Origin: Clostridia bacterium
Lineage (GTDB): Bacteria > Bacillota > Clostridia > Oscillospirales > Acutalibacteraceae
DNA: 64,000 nucleotides
Reading direction: 5' to 3'
NCBI GenBank assembly: GCA_017410325.1
Contig: JAFQRA010000034.1
Location: 64,188-128,187, forward strand
How positions within the stretch are numbered: the first letter of the stretch is position 1; each line of letters starts with the position of its first letter. The position numbers and the translations under genes are program-made. The notes beneath the pieces are model-generated. The model saw only the letters and a list, made by a program, of their open reading frames with translations, had not been told where the DNA came from and searched no databases. Shown here piece after piece: positions 2,639-46,906 of the stretch.

Positions 2639-2759
2639 GCGATAAATGCCATTCGTAAAAAGGGAACGGCTTCGGCTGGAGAATTACAGTTACAGCTGTC
2701 CGGGCGCATATTTTATAACGATATGTACCAAGAATAAGCAATGTATATTTTCAGATGTA

Positions 2760-2785
2760 GTAGGGGACGGCGTCCACGACGTCCC
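2760..2785 (+). repeat. GTAG-headed palindrome, family A, inside the RAYT ORF
   Basis: GTAGGGGACGGCGTCCACGACGTCCC has stem GGGACG/CGTCCC. It matches the intergenic copy at 40525-40550 at 23/26 positions, including one compensatory stem pair. In frame it reads VGDGVHDVP. Confidence 0.8.
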
Positions 2786-2929
2786 GAAGCTTATATTGAC
2801 AGAATATGGAAAATTGTTGCACGGCAACTCGAAACAATGAATTCATTATATGAAAATATTGATGTAGAAAAATTTATTGTAATGCCGAATCACGTTCATC
2901 TTCTGGTACGTGTGCTTGAATCTTCGTCA

Positions 2930-2955
2930 GGGTCGTCGGGGACGCCGACCCCTAC
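2930..2955 (-). repeat. GTAG-headed palindrome, family A, inverted copy inside the RAYT ORF
   Basis: GGGTCGTCGGGGACGCCGACCCCTAC; its reverse complement is 25/26 identical to 40525-40550. In frame it reads GSSGTPTPT. It lies 144 nt from the 2760-2785 copy, with heads pointing outward. Confidence 0.8.
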
Positions 2956-3149
2956 GAATGATGTAATTCCAAGGTTTGTTTCAACGCTGAAACGGTACTG
3001 CAATAAAAGCTTTGGCGAAAACGTGTGGCAGCGTTCATATTACGACCATATTATAAGAGATGATAAGGATTATCTTAATATATGGCAGTACATTGACTGT
3101 AATTATATGAAATGGAAAATCGACCGCTTTTATAAACCTAAATAAATCA

Positions 3150-3189
3150 AACCCCTTGACTTTCAACATTAACTGTCAGTCAAGGGGTT
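3150..3189. terminator. hairpin between convergent RAYT and XRE genes
   Basis: Perfect 12-bp stem AACCCCTTGACT / AGTCAAGGGGTT with a 16-nt loop, followed by GTTTTGTTGTT. The 3' arm overlaps the XRE stop codon. Confidence 0.55.
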
Positions 3190-3413
3190 GTTTTGTTGTT
3201 ACGGGGGTACGGAGAATCTGTTTCGGTTATGCCGAGGATATAGTCAACGCTTGTGTTATAAAAGTATGCAAGCTTGATTAAAACATCTGTCGGTATATCT
3301 CTTGTGCCAAGCTCATAGCGTGAATAGCACACCTGTGAACAGTTCAGGTATTTTGCAAGGTCCTTTTGAAGCAGGTCGTGGTCTTCGCGCAGATTGCGTA
3401 TTTGTTCGTACAT
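3180..3413 (-). CDS. XRE-family HTH transcriptional regulator
   Basis: Track ORF 3180-3470. An HTH_3-like core is present (LLQKDLAKYLNCSQVCYSRYELGTRDIPTDVLIKLAYFYNTSVDYILG). I place the start at the internal ATG (MYEQIRNL), because the upstream extension looks like promoter DNA. Confidence 0.8.
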   Translation of the reverse strand: MYEQIRNLREDHDLLQKDLAKYLNCSQVCYSRYELGTRDIPTDVLIKLAYFYNTSVDYILGITETDSPYPRNNKTTP

Positions 3414-5534: not shown

Positions 5535-6392
5535 TTATGCTTTGTCTTTGCTCAATTGCTCTTTGAGCTCGTCAAGCGAGGAAAATTTTCTTTCGCCTCT
5601 TTTGTAGGAAAGAAGTCTGACTTCAATAGTCTTGCCGTACAAGTTACCGTTGTAGCCGATGATGTGTGTTTCACTGCGCTGCTCGTCGTTTTCAAAGGAC
5701 GGGCGGCGGCCGATATTTGTAACCGAGCGCAGCCATTTTCCGTCAATTTCAGCTTCGGACGAGTAAACGCCGTATTTCGGGACTATGAGCTCTTCGGGGA
5801 AAAGCTGATTAATCGTAGGACAGTCAAGCAGTCTGCCGATTTTGTCGCCGTGCACAACCCGGAGCGTATAGCCGAAGGCTCTGCCGAGCATGGCGTTTGC
5901 TTTTTCAATTTCGCCGTTTTCGAGTGCGCTTCTGATTCTTGTCGAGCTTATGGGTAAGCCCTCGTATTCCACCGCCTCACTTGCGCAAAAGGCAATGCCT
6001 TCTGCTTTGCAAAGGCTTTCAAGCAGGGTGCTGTCGCCTCTGCCGTCCTTGCCGAAACGGTAGTTGAAGCCGCAGCTTAAGGCGCCTGCGTTGAGCTTTT
6101 TAATTATTATATCCTCAAAAAAGCGCTCAGGCTCATAATCTTTAATTTTAAGAAAATCAATTTTAACAACCTCGACGCCCATTTCACTGAGCAGCTTTTC
6201 CTTTTCGCTGTCGGTGATAAGTGCCTTGTGCGGTGTAAAGCCCTCCACATTGCAGGGCAAGGGGTCAAGCAGCAGCACGCAGGGCTTAAACCCGTGCCGT
6301 GACATTGCGGCCGCATTTTCGATTACGGCGGTGTGTCCCTTGTGAAGGCCGTCAAAATTGCCTAAGGCAACAGCCCTTTTAATTTCAGCCAT
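5535..6392 (-). CDS. ribF: bifunctional riboflavin kinase / FMN adenylyltransferase
   Basis: 285 aa. GNFDGLHKGH nucleotidyltransferase motif at the N-terminus, a riboflavin kinase C-terminal half, and the canonical position after truB. Confidence 0.9.
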   Translation of the reverse strand: MAEIKRAVALGNFDGLHKGHTAVIENAAAMSRHGFKPCVLLLDPLPCNVEGFTPHKALITDSEKEKLLSEMGVEVVKIDFLKIKDYEPERFFEDIIIKKLNAGALSCGFNYRFGKDGRGDSTLLESLCKAEGIAFCASEAVEYEGLPISSTRIRSALENGEIEKANAMLGRAFGYTLRVVHGDKIGRLLDCPTINQLFPEELIVPKYGVYSSEAEIDGKWLRSVTNIGRRPSFENDEQRSETHIIGYNGNLYGKTIEVRLLSYKRGERKFSSLDELKEQLSKDKA

Positions 6393-8676: not shown

Positions 8677-11091
8677 TCAGTCTCTGTATTCTTCAATGAT
8701 GAAGGACTCAAAGATATCGCCGAGCTTGATATCGTTGAACTTTGTCAGCACGATACCGCATTCGTAGCCCTGAACAACTTCCTTGACGTCGTCCTTGAAT
8801 CTCTTGAGTGAGCCCATCTCGTCCTCGGCGATAACGATACCGTCACGCACGACGCGGATTTTGGAGGCTCTTGTAACCTTACCGTCAAGCACGTAACAGC
8901 CTGCAACGTTACCAACGGAGGAAATTGAAATAACGTTACGCACCTCAACTCTGCCCTGTACAACCTCACGGGTCTTGGGTGCGAGCATACCCTTCATAGC
9001 TGCCTCGATTTCCTCGATACAGTCATAAATGATGCGGTACATTCTCATCTCAACGCCGTCACGCTCTGCGTATGCCTGAGCTGCGGGGTCGGGGCGGACG
9101 TTGAAGCCGACGATGATGGCGTTGGAAGCGTTTGCAAGCATAACGTCGCTCTCGCTGACTGCGCCGACACCGTTGTGAATAACTCTTACACGAACCTCAT
9201 CGTTGGAGAGCTTTTCAAGGTTCTGCTTGACTGCCTCTGCGGAGCCCTGAACGTCTGCCTTGACGACAACGTTAAGGTCCTTGACCTCGCCTGCCTGAAG
9301 TGAGGAGAAGAGGTTGTCAAGTGTGACCTTCTGTACGGAGTTGAACTGTTCGTCCTTGATTTTCTGCTTGCGCTGTTCAACAAGCTCACGTGCAAGACGC
9401 TCGTCTGAAACTGCGTCGAATACGTCGCCTGCCTGCGGTGCCTCGGCAAGACCCATAATCTCAACGGGGCAGGAGGGGCCTGCCTCCTTGACGTTCTTGC
9501 CGTGCTCGTCAACCATTGCTCTTACGCGGCCGACCGCCGTACCTGCAACGATAATGTCGCCCGAGCGCAGTGTACCGTTCTGAACAAGGAGGGTTGCAAT
9601 CGGGCCGCGGCCCTTGTCGAGTCTTGCTTCAATGACGATACCCTTTGCGGCTCTGTTGGGGTTAGCCTTGAGCTCCTTCATCTCTGCAACGAGAAGTATG
9701 GATTCAAGAAGATTGTCAATACCCATTTTGGTGTGTGCGGAAACGGGAACGCAGATTGTGTCACCGCCCCACTCTTCGGGAATGAGCTCGTACTCTGTGA
9801 GCTGCTGCTTGATTCTGTCGGGATAAACATCGGGCTTATCCATTTTGTTGATAGCTACGATGATTGTAACGCCTGCGGCCTTTGCGTGGTTGATAGCCTC
9901 GATAGTCTGGGGCATAATACCGTCATCAGCGGCAACAACGAGCACGGCAATATCCGTAGCCTGTGCGCCGCGTGCACGCATTGATGTGAAGGCAGCGTGG
10001 CCGGGAGTATCAAGGAAGGTGATAAGCTCGCCGTTTGCCTTTACTCTGTAAGCACCGATGTGCTGTGTGATACCGCCTGCCTCTGTTGAAGTAACGGAGG
10101 TGTGACGGATAGCGTCAAGAAGTGAGGTCTTACCGTGGTCAACGTGACCCATAACGACAACAACGGGGTTTCTGGGCTGAAGGTCTGCATCATCGTCCTC
10201 TGTGGCGTCGATGATTCTGTCTTCGATTGTGACAACGACTTCCTTCGTGACCTTTGCACCCAGCTCGCTTGCTACGATTTCTGCGGTATCGTAGTCGAGA
10301 ATGTCGTTGATTGTTGCCATCTGGCCGAGTGCAAAGAGCTTCTTGATTACCTCTGCGGCAGTCATCTTCAGCTTCATTGCAAGGTCGCCGACCGTAATTT
10401 CGTCGGGAACCGTAATGGAAATCTGTCTGCTTGCACGCTCTGCGGCAATTCTCTTGAGTCTTTCTGCCTCTGTTTCGCGGCGGCGCTGGTTGCCGCCCTG
10501 CTTGCGGTACTGCTTGGATTTCTGGTTGAGCTTCTGCTTTCTGACAGAAGAATCCTGAATACCCTCGGACTTGTTGACGGGAACAATGTTCTCGTAACGC
10601 TCGTTGTATTTTTCGAGCTGAACGTTGTCTGCTCTTGTGTCAATCGTTCTCTTTTCGCCCTTGGTTCTTGCCTGAAGCGGGCCTGTTTTATCCTTCTTCT
10701 TGGGCTGCTGCTGTTCAGGCTGCTTTGCCTGCCGAGGCTGCTGTGCAGGTTTTTTCTCCTGCTGTCTGCCTTCCGGCTTCTTCTGCGCGGGAGCGGCAGG
10801 CTTTCCGGGCTTCTTTTCAGCCTCTGCCTTGGGTGCGGCTTCCTGCTTCTTCTCGGGCTTCTTCTCCTCCTCAGCCTTGGGCTGTGAAGCGGTTGCGAAA
10901 TACTCGTCAAAGCTGCTTACTGCCGACTCCTGGGTGAAGGTTTCAAAAATGATGTCAAGCTCTTTGTCTTCAAGAGCTGTCATATGGTTTTTAGTGTCGT
11001 CAAAATACTTTGCAAGCAGCTCGAGCACAACCTTGCTCGACTTGCCGAAATCCTTGCCGACTTCGTGAATTCTGTATTTGATTGCTGCCAT
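8677..11091 (-). CDS. infB: translation initiation factor IF-2
   Basis: 804 aa. The GTPase G-domain reads [16 protein letters not shown]...DTPGH...NKMD. The N-terminal region is low-complexity and K/P/E/Q-rich. Confidence 0.97.
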
Positions 11092-17695: not shown

Positions 17696-17790
17696 ATCTT
17701 AAAGTTGACTTTTTGTAGGGGCGGATATTATCCGCCCGTGTTGATATTGCTCGGTTTGCGGGCGGCTGATAGCCGCCCCTACTGTGAAGC
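17696..17790 (+). repeat. REPIN-like doublet, family B
   Basis: ATCTTAAAGTTGAC...GTAGGGGCGGATATTATCCGCCC...GGGCGGCTGATAGCCGCCCCTAC...GTGAAG: two hairpins with GTAGGGG heads pointing outward. A near-identical copy lies in inverse orientation at 43551-43640. Confidence 0.85.
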
Positions 17791-18007
17791 TTTAAGTGAA
17801 ACAAGGTGGTAGGGGCAATTCACTTGCTTGTCCGCCGTTTAAGCGATATGGTGATAAAGCTTACCAATCAGGGGACGGTTCTATGATTGGTCTCCTGATT
17901 GATTAATATTTCTTATCAAAAGGTATGTAAATCCATTCAAACCATTGGAATCGCCGCCTTTTATTTCTTTGCAAACACATTATAACACATATTTTCCCCA
18001 AAAAGAA

Positions 18008-26672: not shown

Positions 26673-27833
26673 ATGAAAAAGATTGACTGGAAAACCTGCT
26701 TTCGGGTAGGCGTGAGCGCGTTCGTGCTGTTTTTGTGCATACATTACTGGCCCAATATTTCTGGCTTTATCGGCAAGTGCTTTACTGCCGCCGCACCTGT
26801 TTTTACGGGCTTTGTAATGGCTTATATCATAAATATTCTTATGAGCTTTTACGAACGCCACTTTTTCCCGAATTCGAAAAAGAAGTCGGTTGCAAAAAGC
26901 CGCCGTCCCGTTTCGCTGACGGGTGCCATTCTTACGGTTATCGGCGTTATTGCTCTCGTAATTGTTCTTATTGCACCTCAGCTTGTCAACTGTATCGAAA
27001 TGCTTGTTAACCAGCTGCCCGGAGCGATTGAAAAGCTCATTGCCAAGCTCAACGGGCTGAGCTTTGTTTCCGACGAGCTTATTGCAAGCCTTGCCTCAAT
27101 CGACTGGAAGTCAAGAATAGGCGACATTGCGCAGACTCTTTTTTCCGGTGTCGGTGACGTTATGAACGTTGCGGTTTCCGCAGTTTCAAGCATTTTTACG
27201 GGCATTATGGCTTTCGTTATCGGCTTCATTGTTGCTCTTTATCTGCTTATGGATAAGGACAAGCTCGGCGGTCAGTGCAAGCGTGTTATGAACAGCTGGG
27301 TACCGGGGCGTTTCCTTGAAAAGGTTATGCACGTTGTCTGTGTTGCGGATGACTGCTTCCGCCGCTTCATAGTCGGTCAGTGTACCGAGGCGGTAATTCT
27401 CGGCTCGCTTTGTATGGTGGGTATGCTTATTCTCAGGCTGCCCTATGCGCCTATGGTCGGTGCGCTGATTGCCTTTACCGCGCTTATTCCCATTGTCGGC
27501 GGCCTCATCGGTGCGGGTGTCGGTGCCTTCCTCATACTTATGGTGTCACCAGTAAAGGCGCTCATTTTTATAATTTTCATAATTGTACTTCAGCAGATTG
27601 AAGGCAACCTCATTTACCCGAAGGTTGTCGGCTCGTCAATGGGCCTGCCTGCGCTCTGGGTGCTTGCCGCTGTAACCGTAGGCGGCGGTGTGCTGGGCAT
27701 AGGCGGTATGCTGATAGGCGTGCCCATGGCGGCTGTTGTTTACCGACTGATTAAAGAAAGCCTTAACGAAAAAGAAAGCGCCGTTGCGGCGCAGGCTGAA
27801 CAGGAAGTTGTTTGCAGTGAACAGACTGAGTGA
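26673..27833 (+). CDS. AI-2E (PerM/UPF0118) family transporter
   Basis: 386-aa polytopic protein with the characteristic QQIEGNLIYPKVVGSSMGLP motif. Confidence 0.8.
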   Translation: MKKIDWKTCFRVGVSAFVLFLCIHYWPNISGFIGKCFTAAAPVFTGFVMAYIINILMSFYERHFFPNSKKKSVAKSRRPVSLTGAILTVIGVIALVIVLIAPQLVNCIEMLVNQLPGAIEKLIAKLNGLSFVSDELIASLASIDWKSRIGDIAQTLFSGVGDVMNVAVSAVSSIFTGIMAFVIGFIVALYLLMDKDKLGGQCKRVMNSWVPGRFLEKVMHVVCVADDCFRRFIVGQCTEAVILGSLCMVGMLILRLPYAPMVGALIAFTALIPIVGGLIGAGVGAFLILMVSPVKALIFIIFIIVLQQIEGNLIYPKVVGSSMGLPALWVLAAVTVGGGVLGIGGMLIGVPMAAVVYRLIKESLNEKESAVAAQAEQEVVCSEQTE

Positions 27834-29448
27834 GATTTTTCTCAATGCCCAAAGCAATGAGAATATAGTCCTTGAAAAGAATACGGTTTACCACGCAAGG
27901 CAGGACGATTCGTTTTTGCTCACGGGTTATTATTGCTCGAACACAGCCAAAAAGCACGAAAACCCCGACGGCACTCGGAAAACGGCTGTATATTTAAAGA
28001 ATAAAAAGAATATCGAAATTGACGGCAACGGTGCAACCCTGCTTGTACACGGCAAAATGACACCTTTGCTGTTTGACGGCTGCGAAAACATAACGCTTAA
28101 AAATCTCACGGTGGATTATGCCTGCCCGACGATGGCGGAATTCACCGTGCTTTCAAACGAAAACGGTGTGTGCACGGTTAAAATCAACCCCGAATGCCTT
28201 TACCGTGTGGAAAACGGTGAGCTTATCTGGCAGGGCGAAACGGGGCTTGACGGCAAGCCCTACTGGGAGGACAGCTACATAGGCAGCCGCCGCCACGTAA
28301 AATACTTTGACCCCGTGCAGAGAATGTGCTTTGATTTCGGCAGGAACAATCTTGAATGTGAGAAAATCGAGGAAATCGGAGAAAATACAGTTCGCCTCAC
28401 TCTGAAAAACAGGGAGGCTTATCTGCCGCAGGGAAGTATAATTCAGACACGCAACATAGTCCGTGACCAGACGGGCAGCTTGTTTCAGCGTTGCAAAAAT
28501 CTTACCTTCGAAAACCTGCGCGTAAAATTTATGCACGGTCTGGGTATGGTTTCACAGTTCTGCGAAAACGTGAGCTTCATAAACTGCGACCTTACACCCG
28601 CTCGGGGCAGAACGGTTGCAAGCACGGCGGATTTCTTTCAGTTTTCGGGCTGTAAAGGAAAGCTCAGAATAGAAAACTGCCTTGCAAACGGAGCGCACGA
28701 TGACTACGTGAACGTTCACGGCACACACTTGCGTATAGTGGAAAAGGATGACGGCGAAAACAGCCTGCTTGTCCGCTTTATGCACGCCGAATCCTGGGGC
28801 TTTCAGGCGTTTGAAAAGGGTGATGAGCTTGAATTTATCAGGTGGGATACGCTTCAGCCTTACGCCCGGACAAAGGTTGTTGCTTACGAAAGAATCAACG
28901 ATACGGATATAAGGCTTTTCCTTGACAATGCCCTGCCCGACATAATTCTTGAAAAGGATGTTGTAGAAAACGTTACGTGGACACCCGATTTGTGCGTGCG
29001 CAGCTGCAGCTTCGGCCCGACGGCAGGCAGAGGAATTCTTTGCACCACAAGGGGAGAGGTTGTAGTTGAAAACAACCGCTTTGAAAACCTGTGGGGGCCT
29101 GCGCTTCTGCTGGAGGATGACTGCAACTTCTGGTTTGAATCGGGCTATACAACGAATGTTGTTTTTCGGAACAACCTCATAATCGGCTGTGATTACGGAA
29201 TTACCTGGGAGGGTGCACCCGTAATACGCTATACGCCCAAGGTTATGGACGAAAGCTTTGGAGGCTTTGTTCACGGCAGTCTCACCGTGGAGAATAACCG
29301 CTTTGAGAACGCAAGGGACGGCAAGCACTGCCTTCACCTGGAATACCTGCGTGAAGCGCGAATTGCCAACAACAGCTTTGATGCGCCGTATAAAATTGAC
29401 AGCCGCAACGTTGGCAGTATTAAAGAAGAAAATAATATAACTCAATAA
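27817..29448 (+). CDS. right-handed parallel beta-helix protein (candidate glycanase/lyase)
   Basis: Repeated ...N..I.N... beta-helix-like segments (ITLKNLTVDY, VSFINCDL, RIENCLANGAHD, VVVENNRFEN, VFRNNLI, TVENNRFEN). No signal peptide. There is no in-frame ATG near the 5' end; GTG 27817 was chosen, 10 nt after AGGAAG, overlapping the upstream stop. Confidence 0.6.
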   Translation: MNRLSEIFLNAQSNENIVLEKNTVYHARQDDSFLLTGYYCSNTAKKHENPDGTRKTAVYLKNKKNIEIDGNGATLLVHGKMTPLLFDGCENITLKNLTVDYACPTMAEFTVLSNENGVCTVKINPECLYRVENGELIWQGETGLDGKPYWEDSYIGSRRHVKYFDPVQRMCFDFGRNNLECEKIEEIGENTVRLTLKNREAYLPQGSIIQTRNIVRDQTGSLFQRCKNLTFENLRVKFMHGLGMVSQFCENVSFINCDLTPARGRTVASTADFFQFSGCKGKLRIENCLANGAHDDYVNVHGTHLRIVEKDDGENSLLVRFMHAESWGFQAFEKGDELEFIRWDTLQPYARTKVVAYERINDTDIRLFLDNALPDIILEKDVVENVTWTPDLCVRSCSFGPTAGRGILCTTRGEVVVENNRFENLWGPALLLEDDCNFWFESGYTTNVVFRNNLIIGCDYGITWEGAPVIRYTPKVMDESFGGFVHGSLTVENNRFENARDGKHCLHLEYLREARIANNSFDAPYKIDSRNVGSIKEENNITQ

Positions 29449-40524: not shown

Positions 40525-40717
40525 GTAGGGGTCGGCGTCCTCGACGACCCAAAAAAGTTTATTAATATATCAATGTACGATAGAACTGTAGGGAACGCTC
40601 TTGAGCGTTCCGCAAGGTCTGATGTAACTTAACGGAACGGTCAAGACCCTTCCCTACAACTCGCCGTAAAATGGATATAACATTTTACAAAGGGTCGTCG
40701 AGGACGCCGACCCCTAC
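40525..40717. repeat. nested REPIN-like composite (family A outer pair, family C inner pair)
   Basis: The outer pair is a perfect inverted 26-mer: GTAGGGGTCGGCGTCCTCGACGACCC (40525-40550) and its reverse complement (40692-40717). The inner pair is GTAGGGAACGCTCTTGAGCGTTCC (from 40588) and GGAACGGTCAAGACCCTTCCCTAC (to 40657). Confidence 0.88.
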
Positions 40718-43526: not shown

Positions 43527-43657
43527 GTAGTACGCTGTAACAACTAAAACTTCACTGTAGGGGCGGCTATCAGCCGCCAGCAAACCGAGCAATATCAGCA
43601 CGGGCGGATAATATCCGCCCCTACAAAAGTCAACTTTAAGATGTTACAATGTACTAC
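43527..43657. repeat. nested palindromic element: family B REPIN inside a GTAGTAC..TGTAAC inverted pair
   Basis: The outer arms are GTAGTACGCTGTAAC (43527-43541) and GTTACAATGTACTAC (43643-43657). The inner part (43551-43640) is the inverse copy of 17696-17790. Confidence 0.85.
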
Positions 43658-45333: not shown

Positions 45334-46776
45334 TCAATCAAAGAAATAGAGATTCTGTGCGTCATCACAGTATTGGAACTGCGGGTATTTTTCGTTGGAT
45401 TTTACTGTCGGCTGACCGTCGAATTCGCTTAACCAGAACAGCATATCTGCAACGTCCGAGCCGTAGTTACAGCAAACGTGAGATGCCCCCTTGATAAACC
45501 AGGTGTTGTCGGGGAAAAGGCAGGTTGAAGCGTCGATTACTCTGTCGGGTGAGAGCTTTGTCGGGTCGGCAGCAACGTAGTCGTCACCGAGGGTTTTGCC
45601 GTAGGGTGCAACCGTTGCACCGGCAGACATAAGCTCTGTTTCGAGCACTGCATCACTCTGTACGTAGGAGTGCTCGAAGGCAGGAATATGGGGCTTGCCG
45701 TAGGATGTGACAAGCATAACGCCTACGCCGTCAGCCTGCATCTTCGTGAGGAATTCATCGCGCTGAAGTCTGTACTGCTGGTACTTGTCGAGCTTGGCGA
45801 TAAGGCCTGCGTATTCTTCCTCAACGCCGCTGAACATCAGCTGCTTTGCGGCTTCAAAATCAGCCGTCTGCTGCATACCCCAAAGTCCGGGCCAGGTTGC
45901 AAAGGTTGAACGCATAAGCTCGGCGTAAACCTTTTCCTTGTGTTCGTCCATAAGGTTGTTTGCAAAGTCCGAAACGGCGTTGACAAGGCTGAGCGCCTTG
46001 AGCACGGTCCAGAGAGGCTTGAGGTCGGAAAGCGAGTCGTTGAGGAAGGTCATAAGTATATCAACGTCAATGCCTACCTTGCCTGCGTACGGGTCGGACG
46101 AGCAGTACGAGCCGTAAATTGCGGAGGAGAGGAAAATGCAGTTTTCAACCTTTTCATAGCCGTATTCGTCCAGATAAGCCTGGGTCATAACACCGCCGAG
46201 GCTGCAGCAGATAATGCGCACCTTGTCAGCACCGCTGTCGGCAAGCGCACGGTTGACTGCGGCATCAATCCTCTTTGCGGTGTCGTAGGGGTCAAGGCGC
46301 CAGTCGTACGTTACAAAGTAAACGTTTTCTGCGCCGTAACGCTCAATTGCCTCGCGCACAACTGCACCCTCTGCACCGGTTTCGTGGTTGAATTGGGCTT
46401 CCAGCGCCTCGGGGTAGTTGCTCATTGCAAGGGGATATTCCTTCACGGAAATATTGCCTATGCTTTCGCCGTTTTTATCGCACGCAAGGGGAGCAAAAAT
46501 GCCGCCTGCAATTTCAATTGCCATATCGGCAAAGGCCTCGTTGCCCTTGAAAATGCTAAGAAACAGTCCCTTGAAAACGGAAGCGACAATCGGGCCCGCC
46601 TCAACGCTCATTGCGGGGCGTTCGCTTTCCGTGCCCTGGTCAAGAATAAGGCCGCCGAAATCCATACCGCGGACTATTACAATCGGGTTTTCGGGCTGTG
46701 AGCCCTGAGCAAAGGTGCTCACCGAGCAGGAAAGACCAAGCACAAGCGCAAGGATAATACAAACTACTTTTTTCAT
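45334..46776 (-). CDS. secreted lipase/esterase (alpha/beta hydrolase, LCAT/PGAP1-like)
   Basis: Signal peptide MKKVVCIILALVLGLSCSVSTFA and nucleophile elbow-like CCSLGG. I place the start at the internal ATG. Confidence 0.6.
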   Translation of the reverse strand: MKKVVCIILALVLGLSCSVSTFAQGSQPENPIVIVRGMDFGGLILDQGTESERPAMSVEAGPIVASVFKGLFLSIFKGNEAFADMAIEIAGGIFAPLACDKNGESIGNISVKEYPLAMSNYPEALEAQFNHETGAEGAVVREAIERYGAENVYFVTYDWRLDPYDTAKRIDAAVNRALADSGADKVRIICCSLGGVMTQAYLDEYGYEKVENCIFLSSAIYGSYCSSDPYAGKVGIDVDILMTFLNDSLSDLKPLWTVLKALSLVNAVSDFANNLMDEHKEKVYAELMRSTFATWPGLWGMQQTADFEAAKQLMFSGVEEEYAGLIAKLDKYQQYRLQRDEFLTKMQADGVGVMLVTSYGKPHIPAFEHSYVQSDAVLETELMSAGATVAPYGKTLGDDYVAADPTKLSPDRVIDASTCLFPDNTWFIKGASHVCCNYGSDVADMLFWLSEFDGQPTVKSNEKYPQFQYCDDAQNLYFFD

Positions 46777-46906
46777 AAAATCTACCTCCAAACGGTTTTG
46801 GAAATTGCTGATGTAAAAATTATACATTGTTTTTGGGGGTAAATCAATAAAAATTTCGATATCCCAAATATAAAAATATATTTTTCGAAAAAATTAAATT
46901 TTTCTC

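Follow-up and report, generated by a model that had tools for sequence, protein, structure and literature searches.

Among the closest described systems are the canonical REPtron or REPIN-RAYT systems of E. coli, Pseudomonas, and Stenotrophomonas, described by Nunvar (2010), Bertels and Rainey (2011), Ton-Hoang (2012), Messing (2012), and Corneloup (2021). These combine a Y1 HUH enzyme, with a Y---N(P) motif and GTAG-contact residues, with GTAG-footed hairpins that often contain an internal mismatch and occur as heads-out inverted doublets; further, the enzyme and the REP co-vary. The same features recur in a gene found in a 64,000-nucleotide stretch of DNA from a Clostridia bacterium (hereafter the window) and in its homologs. 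However, the REPs of the REPtrons flank the gene and lie outside it, whereas those described here are inside the ORF and are translated. The Clostridial systems also differ in their low REP copy density and in having REP types that are common to many species.

In-frame REPs within tnpA_REP genes have been described for subclass 2.4, or RAYT Group 4 (Quentin et al. 2018, BMC Genomics 19:475, PMC6006769). The kind has therefore been known since 2018, and the statement in an earlier note on this DNA that RAYT genes are flanked, but never interrupted, by REPs is out of date. As judged from its published description, subclass 2.4 shares with the Clostridial genes the presence of REPs in the coding sequence with the reading frame intact, canonical GTAG REPs with G-C pairs at the base of the stem, the absence of a C-terminal extension, and a variable insert length with short repeats in some members; in our set of 146 representatives, HUH and WQ lie 39-128 apart, with a median of 51. 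The insertion in subclass 2.4 lies between the HuH strand and helix C, which is also the site of the second arm of the Clostridial pair, and its REPs GTAGGGGCGACCCGGTGGGTCGCCC and GTAGGGGCAATTCATGAATTGCCCCTAC (Table S1, PMC6006769) resemble the Clostridial ones; we found no Clostridial REP types in that table. In contrast, the first arm of the pair lies before HUH, between β1 and helix A, a site not described for subclass 2.4, and in the Clostridia the two arms form a heads-out pair that is conserved on either side of the catalytic motif. From HuH to the tyrosine (H85 to Y149), the window protein spans 64 aa, as against a subclass median of 88. The REPs of subclass 2.4 also flank the gene, whereas the window gene is without flanking REPs and 18 of the 88 family genes have them; the hosts here are gut Clostridia. 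Finally, the inserts were treated as tolerated in the subclass 2.4 paper, in which compensatory evolution and locus-level covariation are not reported. Hence, the novelty that the earlier note tentatively attached to in-frame REPs in a RAYT of Firmicutes does not extend to the kind. What is new is the evidence for selection on the hairpins, together with the finding that a large clade of Clostridia conserves an inverted pair on either side of HUH.

The IS200/IS605 elements share with the window gene the transposase fold, the defined orientation of left and right hairpins, and the use of imperfect hairpins with a 5′ guide tetranucleotide on ssDNA. However, in those elements the hairpins are subterminal and outside tnpA, the catalytic motif is Y---Q, and the element is multicopy. 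The window gene has Y---N and its hairpins are inside the ORF, such that excision between them would delete the HUH-coding segment. Palindromic elements of Rickettsia are short palindromes that occur in-frame and are translated as surface loops of normal proteins. In-frame palindromic repeats translated as surface loops are likewise seen among the GTAG/CGTC REPs (Di Nocera 2013, PMC3733652). In both these cases the repeats are sporadic and occur in genes unrelated to the mobilizing enzyme, whereas here the host gene is that of the cognate enzyme and the sites are conserved family-wide.

The RAYT-like gene and its internal hairpin pair

The window contains a single RAYT copy, a TnpA_REP/RAYT-like Y1 HUH transposase gene at 2646..3145 (+), with the upstream ORF ending 7 nt before its start. 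Its RAYT-like identity, initially read from the letters alone, is borne out by profile matches, alignment, and fold. The protein matches Pfam Y1_Tnp (PF01797; E = 7e-6, 26.6 bits against a cutoff of 23) and scores 59.2 bits against the NCBIfam REP_Tyr_transpos equivalog NF047646, under its cutoff of 80; it is a divergent relative of this curated equivalog. In terms of both TM (0.62) and rmsd (2.7 Å), the best fold match of its AF2 model (pLDDT 82.9) is E. coli TnpA_REP bound to the REP hairpin (4er8). The HUH motif is encoded at 2891-2899, within the MPNHVHLLV codons at 2882..2908 (+), and neither H83 nor H85 varies in the family alignment. The WQRSYYDHIIR codons at 3026..3058 (+) align in phmmer to WQPRFWEHAIR of 4er8, a segment that includes the GTAG contacts of E. 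coli TnpA_REP, namely, W94, Q95, E100, H101, and R104 (PMC6006769). A D stands in place of E100, a replacement known for subclasses 2.5 and 2.7 (PMC6006769); across the family, this residue (D134) does not vary, and near-invariance is seen at Q129, H135, and R138. The catalytic-tyrosine motif Y---N, for which the class 2 signature is Y---NP, is encoded by the YIDCNYMKW codons at 3089..3115 (+). N153 does not vary in the family alignment and Y149 scarcely does, and the window protein has N-Y where the family consensus, YIDxNPxKW, has N-P.

The window gene is inactivated. One A is missing from an A5 run, leaving an A4 run at 2810..2813 (+) and splitting the gene into ORFs 2646-2840 and 2741-3145; it is because of this loss that the two arms lie in different frames in the window. 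Alignment of the window to six intact alleles with the same synteny (L081-L086) shows that these have A5 and one uninterrupted ORF of 166 aa, in which both arms are in-frame and have the same sequence as in the window, and the frame-repaired window protein matches P0001 at 100% identity. The A5 run and continuous ORF of these six assemblies make programmed frameshifting improbable at this site, and it is also opposed by a second, different frameshift allele (P0039).

Arm 1 of the internal pair is a GTAG-footed REP hairpin, GTAGGGGACGGCGTCCACGACGTCCC, at 2760..2785 (+), read GTA GGG ... as VGDGVHDVP in the frame of ORF 2646-2840. Arm 2, at 2930..2955 (−), is the same REP with its GTAG foot antisense; its reverse complement is GTAGGGGTCGGCGTCCCCGACGACCC, and the sense strand reads GSSGTPTPT in the frame of ORF 2741-3145. 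The arms are oriented heads outward, 144 nt apart, and enclose the HUH codons. Extragenic copies of this REP form a heads-out doublet between convergent ORFs, with the left arm at 40525..40550 (+) and the right arm at 40692..40717 (−); the former and the reverse complement of the latter are both GTAGGGGTCGGCGTCCTCGACGACCC, and the gap between them is 141 nt. With respect to this 26-mer, the 2930 copy has a single difference, at position 17, and the 2760 copy has three, namely, at position 17, at position 8 (A in place of T), and at position 23 (T in place of A), the last two of which pair with each other in the predicted ssDNA hairpin. The sequence thus agrees in full with the earlier note as regards the arm coordinates, their orientation and gap, the peptide readings and the enclosed MPNHVHLLV, the perfect intergenic pair, the 25/26 identity of the 2930 copy, and the three differences, two of them compensatory, of the 2760 copy. 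The predicted ssDNA hairpin does not change in shape among the four copies, with folding energies of −9 to −9.9 kcal/mol and z values of −2.8 to −3.7, and at up to 3 mismatches the 26-mer has 4 matches in the window versus 0.00 expected over 100 shuffles. The REP comprises a GTAG foot and a stem of ~9 bp, often with one internal mismatch. No GTAGG hairpin adjoins the gene in the window sequence.

In the AF2 model, the arm 1 peptide (residues 39-47) is a β-hairpin turn between β1 and helix A. The arm 2 peptide (residues 96-104) is a loop with a pLDDT of <50 between the HUH strand and the next helix, and it aligns to a 10-residue gap in 4er8. The encoded peptides are wholly different between REP types (e.g., VGEGLCALP, VGAIHESP, VGDDAHIVP, and VGQGLAPA), and the only fixed residues in them are V-G, from GTAGGG, and P-T/L/Y, from CCCCTAC. 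The arm-encoded peptides are passengers at two permissive surface sites.

Family-wide occurrence and extragenic copies

The family is large, with ~35,000 clusters at 50% identity. The earlier note took palindromes at both positions in homologous RAYTs to be crucial to its reading; such a pair, with one GTAGG-headed arm before HUH and an inverted arm after it (no more than 6 mismatches in 26), is present in 75 of 88 homologous genes from 80 Clostridia genome loci, and 52 distinct arm sequences occur among these pairs. A strict hairpin test on both sides is passed by 72 of 87 genes. The signature is also apparent in the proteins: 83 of 146 representatives, each from a separate 50%-identity cluster, have reverse-complement-compatible peptides around HUH as against 1-5 of 146 in shuffled controls, the count of forced mismatches being calibrated on shuffles. 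Under the stricter measure of exact 7-mer reverse-complement compatibility, 25 of 120 pass. Relatives of the window gene occupy different neighborhoods, and some family loci hold 2-3 tandem paralogs. REP type follows protein phylogeny only loosely (Mantel r = −0.31): tandem paralogs that are 62% identical bear unrelated arms, and proteins that are 41-44% identical bear identical arms. In several members (L053, L062, L063, L048, L055, and L071), one or both arms have been lost and the catalytic motifs kept; the protein therefore does not require the arms. A few members (P0152, P0130, and L024) have tandem REP arrays and mixed REP types in the same loops, and such arrays of REP-encoded peptides resemble selfish accumulation.

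Outside the genes, REPs are sparse, with ~1 GTAGG hairpin per 10 kb. The window contains two further REP families. One is represented by a 70-nt heads-out doublet at 40588..40657, consisting of GTAGGGAACGCTCTTGAGCGTTCC and a diverged inverted copy with AACT on both sides, and it is nested within the 40525-40717 doublet. The other is a 68-nt heads-out doublet, GTAGGGGCGGATATTATCCGCCC / GTAGGGGCGGCTATCAGCCGCCC, which has compensated stem changes between its arms and occurs at 17715..17782 and, in the opposite orientation, at 43557..43624. The recurrence of the window 26-mer, which the earlier note considered decisive, is extensive: it is carried by at least 120 contigs from metagenomes, which represent at least 60 distinct contexts, and 126 of 128 metagenome copies, sorted by an HMM search of six-frame ORFs, are outside RAYT genes. 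These copies are mostly singletons, with a partner present for 5 of the 128. We also considered whether the 40525-40717 doublet might be a decayed copy of the internal segment of the gene, given that the two spacers are close in length (141 and 144 nt). This was rejected, as no similarity was seen between the spacers, whether the nested doublet was included or left out (local score of 10 for the coding 144-nt spacer against the extragenic spacer; shuffle mean, 11.6). Because the coding spacer is unlike the extragenic one and the 26-mer is mostly a singleton, the in-gene pair, despite its inverted-REP geometry, is not a REPIN in the sense of a unit of two inverted REPs and spacer replicated together.

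Constraint on the hairpins and its possible causes

Several lines of evidence point to constraint on the nucleic acid. When arm 1 is compared with arm 2 in each gene, 28 double changes stay Watson-Crick, 5 became G-T, and 3 broke the pair; the null for compensated double changes has a mean of 2.1 and a maximum of 8 in 2000 trials, these being counts that take no account of shared ancestry. In an alignment of 75 distinct arms, restricted beforehand to those with 7 or more of 9 pairs, covariation scores 0.48, compared with 0.13 in shuffles (none of the 500 reached the observed value) and no more than 0.13 in slid controls, and the 8-23 pair uses all four Watson-Crick types. The compensatory change that first drew attention in the window gene is one instance of this family-wide compensation within the hairpin, and the earlier suggestion of selection on nucleic-acid structure is therefore supported. 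Codon use presents a similar picture. At sites where two genes have the same amino acid, the codon is identical in 73% of cases in the arms versus 45% elsewhere, and the V-G codons in the arms are always GTA GGG. The closest relatives of the window gene (57-86% amino acid identity, some in different neighborhoods) have 14-17 of 16-17 arm codons identical, versus 44-79% in the rest of the gene, and retain its arm 1/arm 2 asymmetry. In one of them (P0003), a new compensatory pair was acquired at the cost of a V-to-I change. The hairpins inside and outside the genes also co-vary by locus, a dependence that the earlier note had singled out: 35 of 105 extragenic GTAGG hairpins match the in-gene arm of their own locus (at most 2 mismatches), which is about six times chance (null, 5.6 ± 2.7; maximum, 18). 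In-gene and extragenic copies alike have G at +1 and a pyrimidine at both −2 and −1. The idea that the in-gene arms might be bind-only sites that lack a CT cleavage dinucleotide was rejected, as all classes are alike: CT at −2, −1 is rare (5-7%) in all three copy classes, all of which have YY and G at +1. Taken together, the family-wide pairs, compensation, codon reuse, and own-locus matches indicate that the hairpins are cognate REPs under nucleic-acid-level constraint.

We accordingly regard it as probable, if short of certain, that the window gene encodes a REP-associated Y1 HUH endonuclease whose palindromes are in-frame copies of its cognate REP under DNA-level constraint. The DNA of the arms evolves under the same nucleic-acid-level constraint as the extragenic REPs, with each arm keeping its own hairpin, foot, and flanking bases. 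The stem sequence shifts via compensatory substitution or head-anchored replacement, and additional REPs can accumulate at the two in-gene sites. Under this proposal, the constraint would arise because the enzyme binds, and possibly processes, the hairpins as ssDNA, presumably that of the sense strand in the case of arm 1 and of the antisense strand in the case of arm 2. Such binding or cleavage of the in-gene arms is suggested by analogy to the E. coli and Marinomonas enzymes (PMC8266576), and the earlier proposal that the enzyme ORF and its probable ssDNA substrate are superimposed is supported. If the hairpins are so bound, the gene carries resident cis sites that link enzyme and substrate in inheritance. 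A role in autoregulation or as a source copy for new REPs is speculative, and hairpin integrity could also stem from repeated conversion from extragenic copies instead of selection in place.

As to what the hairpins do, the sequences present two candidates, a cis-binding site and a tolerated selfish insertion. We only tentatively advance the stronger form of the first, in which, across a very large clade of RAYTs from gut Clostridia, the in-frame REP pair is a selected functional cis element and the enzyme binds hairpins extruded from its own gene. If true, enzyme and substrate would be physically coupled, with autoregulation, protection of specificity, or the seeding of new REP copies after transfer as possible roles. 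The gene would then hold a dual code for protein and DNA structure, with amino acid changes accepted to keep the DNA hairpin.

The second candidate, essentially the published reading for subclass 2.4 (PMC6006769), seems to us unlikely for the Clostridial pair. It holds that a RAYT acts preferentially near its own gene and that REPs landing in-frame survive in two permissive loops, the intact hairpins reflecting recent insertion or gene conversion from functional extragenic copies with no selection in place. This is in keeping with a variable insertion that is remote from the sites of DNA binding and catalysis (Quentin 2018, PMC6006769), with the tandem arrays and mixed REP types, with the members that have lost arms, and with the unrelated arm types of close or tandem paralogs noted above. 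Arm 2, moreover, is read in three frames (60/19/1). However, the position and orientation of the arms are fixed in ~85% of genes at 36-57% identity, and arm 1 is read as GTA GGG in 77 of 77 in-gene cases even though a second frame is open, which argues against repeated independent insertion. Likewise difficult to reconcile with mere tolerance are the inheritance of the arm asymmetry with near-identical codons in the closest relatives, the non-synonymous change in the new compensatory pair, and the scarcity of disruptive stem changes (3 versus 28).

Quite improbable, in our assessment, is an RNA-level cis element, in which the arms restrict translation or set mRNA stability independently of RAYT binding, either as two local hairpins or as a long arm 1-arm 2 duplex closing the HUH-coding segment. 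The rationale for such an element would be that the encoded nuclease is potentially harmful. The predicted RNA fold of 2750-2965 does pair arm 1 with arm 2 (−72.6 kcal/mol; z, −4.6), and a precedent exists in the repression of IS200 tnpA by mRNA structure. REPs can also act as RNA elements (PMC3733652). However, compensation within each arm costs two arm-arm mismatches per event, and the long-range duplex is therefore rejected as the conserved feature. Moreover, the GTAG foot of arm 2 is conserved on the antisense strand, where the RNA would read CUAC; the flanking bases are the same as those of the extragenic DNA copies; and hairpins of −9 to −13 kcal/mol would melt under a translating ribosome. 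Least credible of all is the view that the peptides are what counts and that two conserved protein motifs give rise to the palindromy incidentally. In its favor, the alignment of close homologs has VG..V.D.P and G.S.TP.PT among its best-conserved stretches, but the view is already contradicted by the family data, in which peptides are swapped wholesale while the arms stay reverse complements, arm codon usage is fixed, the arm 2 peptide is predicted to be disordered, and the same 26-mers are present outside genes.

More generally, these genes bear on how RAYTs and REPs stay matched over the long term and on what RAYTs actually do. They amount to a natural experiment in which the substrate sits inside the gene of its enzyme at two fixed sites, with more than 50 stem variants and compensatory upkeep that is sometimes non-synonymous. 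This offers a read-out of the constrained features of a REP, namely, the foot, the stem shape, the internal mismatch, and the flanking YY and G, and the clade supplies ready matches of enzyme and cognate REP for biochemical work in Firmicutes. There is also a consequence for annotation, in that VG....P and G....PT/PL/PY are translated REPs, as are many short spurious ORFs in gut metagenomes.

A frameshifted RAYT gene and its two in-frame hairpins

The overlapping ORFs at 2646-2840 and 2741-3145 are a single gene split by an absent A: the window has A4 at 2810-2813, where six further assemblies carrying this locus (a GH38 alpha-mannosidase gene upstream, an HTH gene downstream) have A5. With the frame repaired, the product has 166 aa and 100% identity to the intact database protein P0001. 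It matches Pfam Y1_Tnp (E 7e-6) and NCBIfam REP_Tyr_transpos (59 bits, under the equivalog cutoff of 80), and its nearest solved structure by sequence is the E. coli TnpA_REP (4er8), on which its AlphaFold model (pLDDT 82.9) superimposes with a TM of 0.62 and an rmsd of 2.7 A. The HUH and tyrosine (Y---N) motifs are conserved, and the residues whose role in contacting GTAG is described for the E. coli enzyme (W, Q, D/E, H, R; PMC6006769) are kept in WQRSYYDHIIR. Therefore, the product is a RAYT/TnpA_REP-type enzyme of a divergent subfamily, of which the window copy is a frameshifted allele. This allele (P0004) is also present in other assemblies, as is a second, independent one (P0039) shifted just 5' of the second hairpin, suggesting that the gene has been inactivated recurrently within the species. 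Just past its stop, at 3150-3190, an inverted repeat with a perfect 10-bp match (CCCCTTGACT...AGTCAAGGGG) precedes a T-rich tract; the structure resembles a bidirectional terminator common to the RAYT gene and the convergent HTH gene, and is absent from a simple terminator scan because of its long loop.

Within the gene lie two GTAG-footed hairpins, identical in sequence across all alleles: arm 1 at 2760-2785 on the plus strand (GTAGGGGACGGCGTCCACGACGTCCC, read VGDGVHDVP) and arm 2 at 2930-2955 on the minus strand (reverse complement GTAGGGGTCGGCGTCCCCGACGACCC, read GSSGTPTPT). They are 144 nt apart and enclose the MPNHVHLLV codons (2882-2908). An extragenic doublet of the same REP lies between convergent ORFs: its two copies, 141 nt apart, are 40525-40550 and, as reverse complement, 40692-40717, and each reads GTAGGGGTCGGCGTCCTCGACGACCC. 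At up to three mismatches, the 26-mer has exactly these four matches across the 64 kb; shuffles give an expectation of 0.00. A common ssDNA fold is predicted for all four (six pairs, an unpaired position per side forming a G-A mismatch, then two more pairs closing a loop of four bases), with energies of -9 to -9.9 kcal/mol and z of -2.8 to -3.7. The coordinates, gaps, reading of the arms, and 26-mer copies reported in the earlier note all hold, and the predicted hairpin bears out its view that the changes at positions 8 and 23 of the 2760 copy compensate each other within one base pair.

A family-wide pair under constraint as hairpins

A pattern-and-tblastn scan, with one genome per species and loci chosen by catalytic motifs, not arms, yielded 80 loci, nearly all from Clostridia (Acutalibacteraceae, Oscillospiraceae, Ruminococcaceae, Christensenella, Gemmiger; 36-57% identity). 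In 75 of the 88 RAYT genes from these loci and the window, a GTAGG-headed palindrome of 22-26 nt lies 5' of the HUH codons and an inverted copy 3' of them, the arrangement that the earlier note proposed to look for in homologs. The two arms of these 75 genes differ at no more than 6 of 26 positions, with gaps mostly of 133-157 nt, and a strict hairpin test was passed at both sides in 72/87 genes. Stems are radically different from gene to gene (52 distinct arm-1 22-mers, e.g., GTAGGGGAGGGTCTCCGTGCCCTCCC, GTAGGGGCGATTCACGAATCGCCC, GTAGGGGACGATGCCCACATCGTCCC, and GTAGGGCAGGGGCTTGCTCCTGCC), and within any one gene arm 1 and arm 2 agree, so that the encoded peptides covary as pairs (VGDGVLDVP/GTSRTPSPT, VGTGVLDCP/GQSGTPVPT, VGGGVLDAP/GASGTPPPT). 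A profile search of 1.84 billion representatives returned 35,321 clusters at E <= 1e-3, of which 1,843 reach E <= 1e-30; in 83 of the 146 best HUH-bearing representatives, the peptides flanking HUH could be encoded by reverse-complementary DNA (at most two forced mismatches in 22 nt), versus 1-5 in shuffled controls. The arm pair characterizes the family as a whole and is not peculiar to the window gene.

The arms are cognate REPs that lie in frame at two permissive loops and evolve under hairpin-level constraint. The E. coli and Marinomonas enzymes recognize GTAG plus the hairpin on ssDNA (PMC8266576, PMC3479197), and the enzyme described here would bind its arms when single stranded, the sense strand presenting arm 1 and the antisense strand arm 2. 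If bound in this way, the arms would provide the gene with resident cis sites joining the inheritance of enzyme and substrate; a role in autoregulation or seeding is speculative. We consider this account, from cognate in-frame REPs under hairpin constraint to predicted binding and enzyme-substrate coupling, the probable one. Its main rival, which is the published view of subclass 2.4 (the TnpA_REP class with in-gene REPs), holds that the inserts are merely tolerated; we regard it as unlikely, for reasons that emerge from the pattern of substitution and from the sites themselves.

Among stem differences between arms of one gene, 28 pairs were changed on both sides and still Watson-Crick, 5 were G-T, and 3 were broken (raw counts, kinship ignored); the same number of differences placed randomly gave on average 2.1 compensated pairs and never more than 8 over 2000 trials. 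In a set of 75 distinct in-gene arms of 26-nt geometry, prefiltered at >=7/9 pairs and uncorrected for shared ancestry, 91% of cells pair versus 73% when shuffled, both sides are changed in 124 cells versus 28, and covariation scores 0.48 versus 0.13 in shuffles (0/500 as high) and <=0.13 with slid partners. All four Watson-Crick types are used at pair 8-23 in this set, and 11-20 is a conserved non-pair (G-A) in 42/75 arms, reminiscent of the irregular stem that the E. coli enzyme needs (PMC8266576). The constraint acts on nucleic-acid structure, as the earlier note had supposed from one gene. Mere tolerance is also at odds with codon identity in the arms: where two genes have the same amino acid at an aligned position, the codon is the same in 73% of cases in arms versus 45% elsewhere, and the V-G codons are always GTA GGG. 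In P0002, P0003, and P0005, the window's nearest relatives (57-86% identity; two of them in different neighborhoods), 14-17 of 16-17 arm codons are identical, versus 44-79% in the remaining gene. The arm 1 (A..T)/arm 2 (T..A) asymmetry is inherited in all three, and P0003 has an additional compensated pair (GAC to GAT, GTC to ATC) at the price of a V-to-I replacement; inherited asymmetry and nonsynonymous compensation both argue against tolerance. RNA folding of 2750-2965 predicts an arm 1-arm 2 duplex; however, the compensated changes reduce arm-to-arm complementarity and hence preserve local hairpins, not a long duplex. We regard a role of the arms in RNA as highly improbable.

Arm sites, REP turnover, and extragenic copies

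In the AlphaFold model, arm 1 corresponds to residues 39-47, in the turn of the beta-hairpin between beta1 and helix A, and arm 2 to residues 96-104, the sole segment with pLDDT < 50, which follows the HUH strand (83-90), precedes the next helix (107-123), and lies opposite a 10-residue gap of E. coli TnpA_REP in the alignment. The only conserved arm residues are those set by the foot (V-G, P-T/L/Y); the arm-encoded peptides look like passengers, and a peptide-level role can practically be dismissed. Numerous members of the family carry additional REP-encoded units at precisely these sites, where HMM matches are interrupted (profile positions ~40-47 and ~95-107): P0152 has six tandem VGTG[VI]PD[CD]P units, P0130, P0129, P0180, P0257, and P0261 also have extra ones, and the locus L024 (10124-10215) has REPs of two other types inside the arm-1 loop. 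The two sites are landing pads for REPs. Such tandem arrays and the occasional loss of arms are what tolerated insertion would lead one to expect, as is the loose coupling of REP type to phylogeny: REP type correlates weakly with arm-masked protein identity (Mantel r -0.31, 0/2000), proteins at 41-44% identity have identical arms, and tandem paralogues at about 62% identity have unrelated in-frame REPs in L002 (9130, 10237), L041 (10234, 11804), and L060 (4331, 6416, 8864). Against it, sites and orientation are fixed. All 77 in-gene cases of arm 1 are read in the GTA GGG frame, even though xGT AGG would be open to them as well, and arm 2 occurs in three frames (60/19/1). Fresh insertion would thus be a less frequent route of REP-type turnover than compensatory change in place or replacement anchored at the foot.

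The in-gene arms are the same element as the extragenic REPs. Of 300 GTAGG-footed hairpins in 1.235 Mb of loci, 176 are in RAYT genes and 124 elsewhere; 35/105 extragenic hairpins differ at <=2/22 positions from an arm inside a RAYT gene of the same locus, against 5.6 +/- 2.7 (maximum 18) in 2000 locus permutations, which bears out the covariation anticipated in the earlier note. Classical flanking copies also occur at 18/88 genes (e.g., on both sides in L032), and the arm-less genes of L053 and L063 show the classical REPtron layout, with REP doublets just 3' (10867-10981 and 5997-6134, respectively). Across loci L001-L206 and the window, in-gene and extragenic copies share bases beyond the palindrome (pyrimidines at -2/-1 and G at +1 in 84-89%). 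CT directly 5' of the foot, the cleavage site of the E. coli enzyme, is rare (5-7%) in the L001-L080 loci and the window; in A-type 26-mer copies on metagenome contigs, the preference is for C at position -2 (47%) and for T at position -1 (63%). An exact scan found the window REP on at least 120 metagenome contigs, so that the 26-mer is indeed repeated elsewhere; among the matches listed, 126/128 copies are external to RAYT ORFs, the flank contexts number at least 60, and most copies are singletons. These REP counts cover locus sequences and metagenome contigs.

The premise that RAYT genes are flanked but not interrupted by REPs was wrong, because in-frame REPs inside tnpA_REP genes of subclass 2.4, and likewise of some 2.8 members, had been published (Quentin et al. 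2018, PMC6006769); the kind is thus already known. In-frame REPs have also been reported within unrelated genes (Di Nocera et al. 2013, PMC3733652). A full-text literature search found no further description, and none of the Clostridial REP types is in the REP table of Quentin et al. 2018. New relative to the literature are a conserved heads-out pair that brackets HUH and has one of its arms ahead of the motif; the near-universal presence of this pair in a very large Clostridial clade whose HuH-Y distance is normal and whose genes mostly lack flanking REPs; and the quantitative evidence of selection on hairpins and of locus-level covariation.

Other REP families in the window

Three further heads-out doublets (17715-17782, 43557-43624, and 40588-40657) represent two other REP families, whose cognate RAYTs were not found within the 64-kb window. 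The 70-nt doublet at 40588-40657, of the second family, is nested in the 40525-40717 doublet, as if one REP doublet had landed within another; the AACT flanks on both sides (40584-40661) are possibly a target-site signature. The other two are copies, in opposite orientation, of a 68-nt doublet (GTAGGGGCGGATATTATCCGCCC...GGGCGGCTGATAGCCGCCCCTAC), whose arms differ through compensated stem changes. Their homology runs ~17 nt left and ~12 nt right past the GTAG feet, giving a repeated unit of ~100 nt (17697-17795 and 43545-43642). Adjoining the 17715-17782 copy, GTAGGGGCAATTCACTTGCTTGTCC at 17809-17833 resembles a degraded REP of the GTAGGGGCAATTCA... (VGAIHE) type. Finally, single GTAGGG-footed perfect 7-bp hairpins lie within two long ORFs, at 45601-45621 on the plus strand (GTAGGGTGCAACCGTTGCACC; ORF 45334-46827) and at 28243-28263 on the minus strand (GTAGGGCTTGCCGTCAAGCCC; ORF 27784-29448), and could be either chance occurrences or in-frame REPs of other genes.
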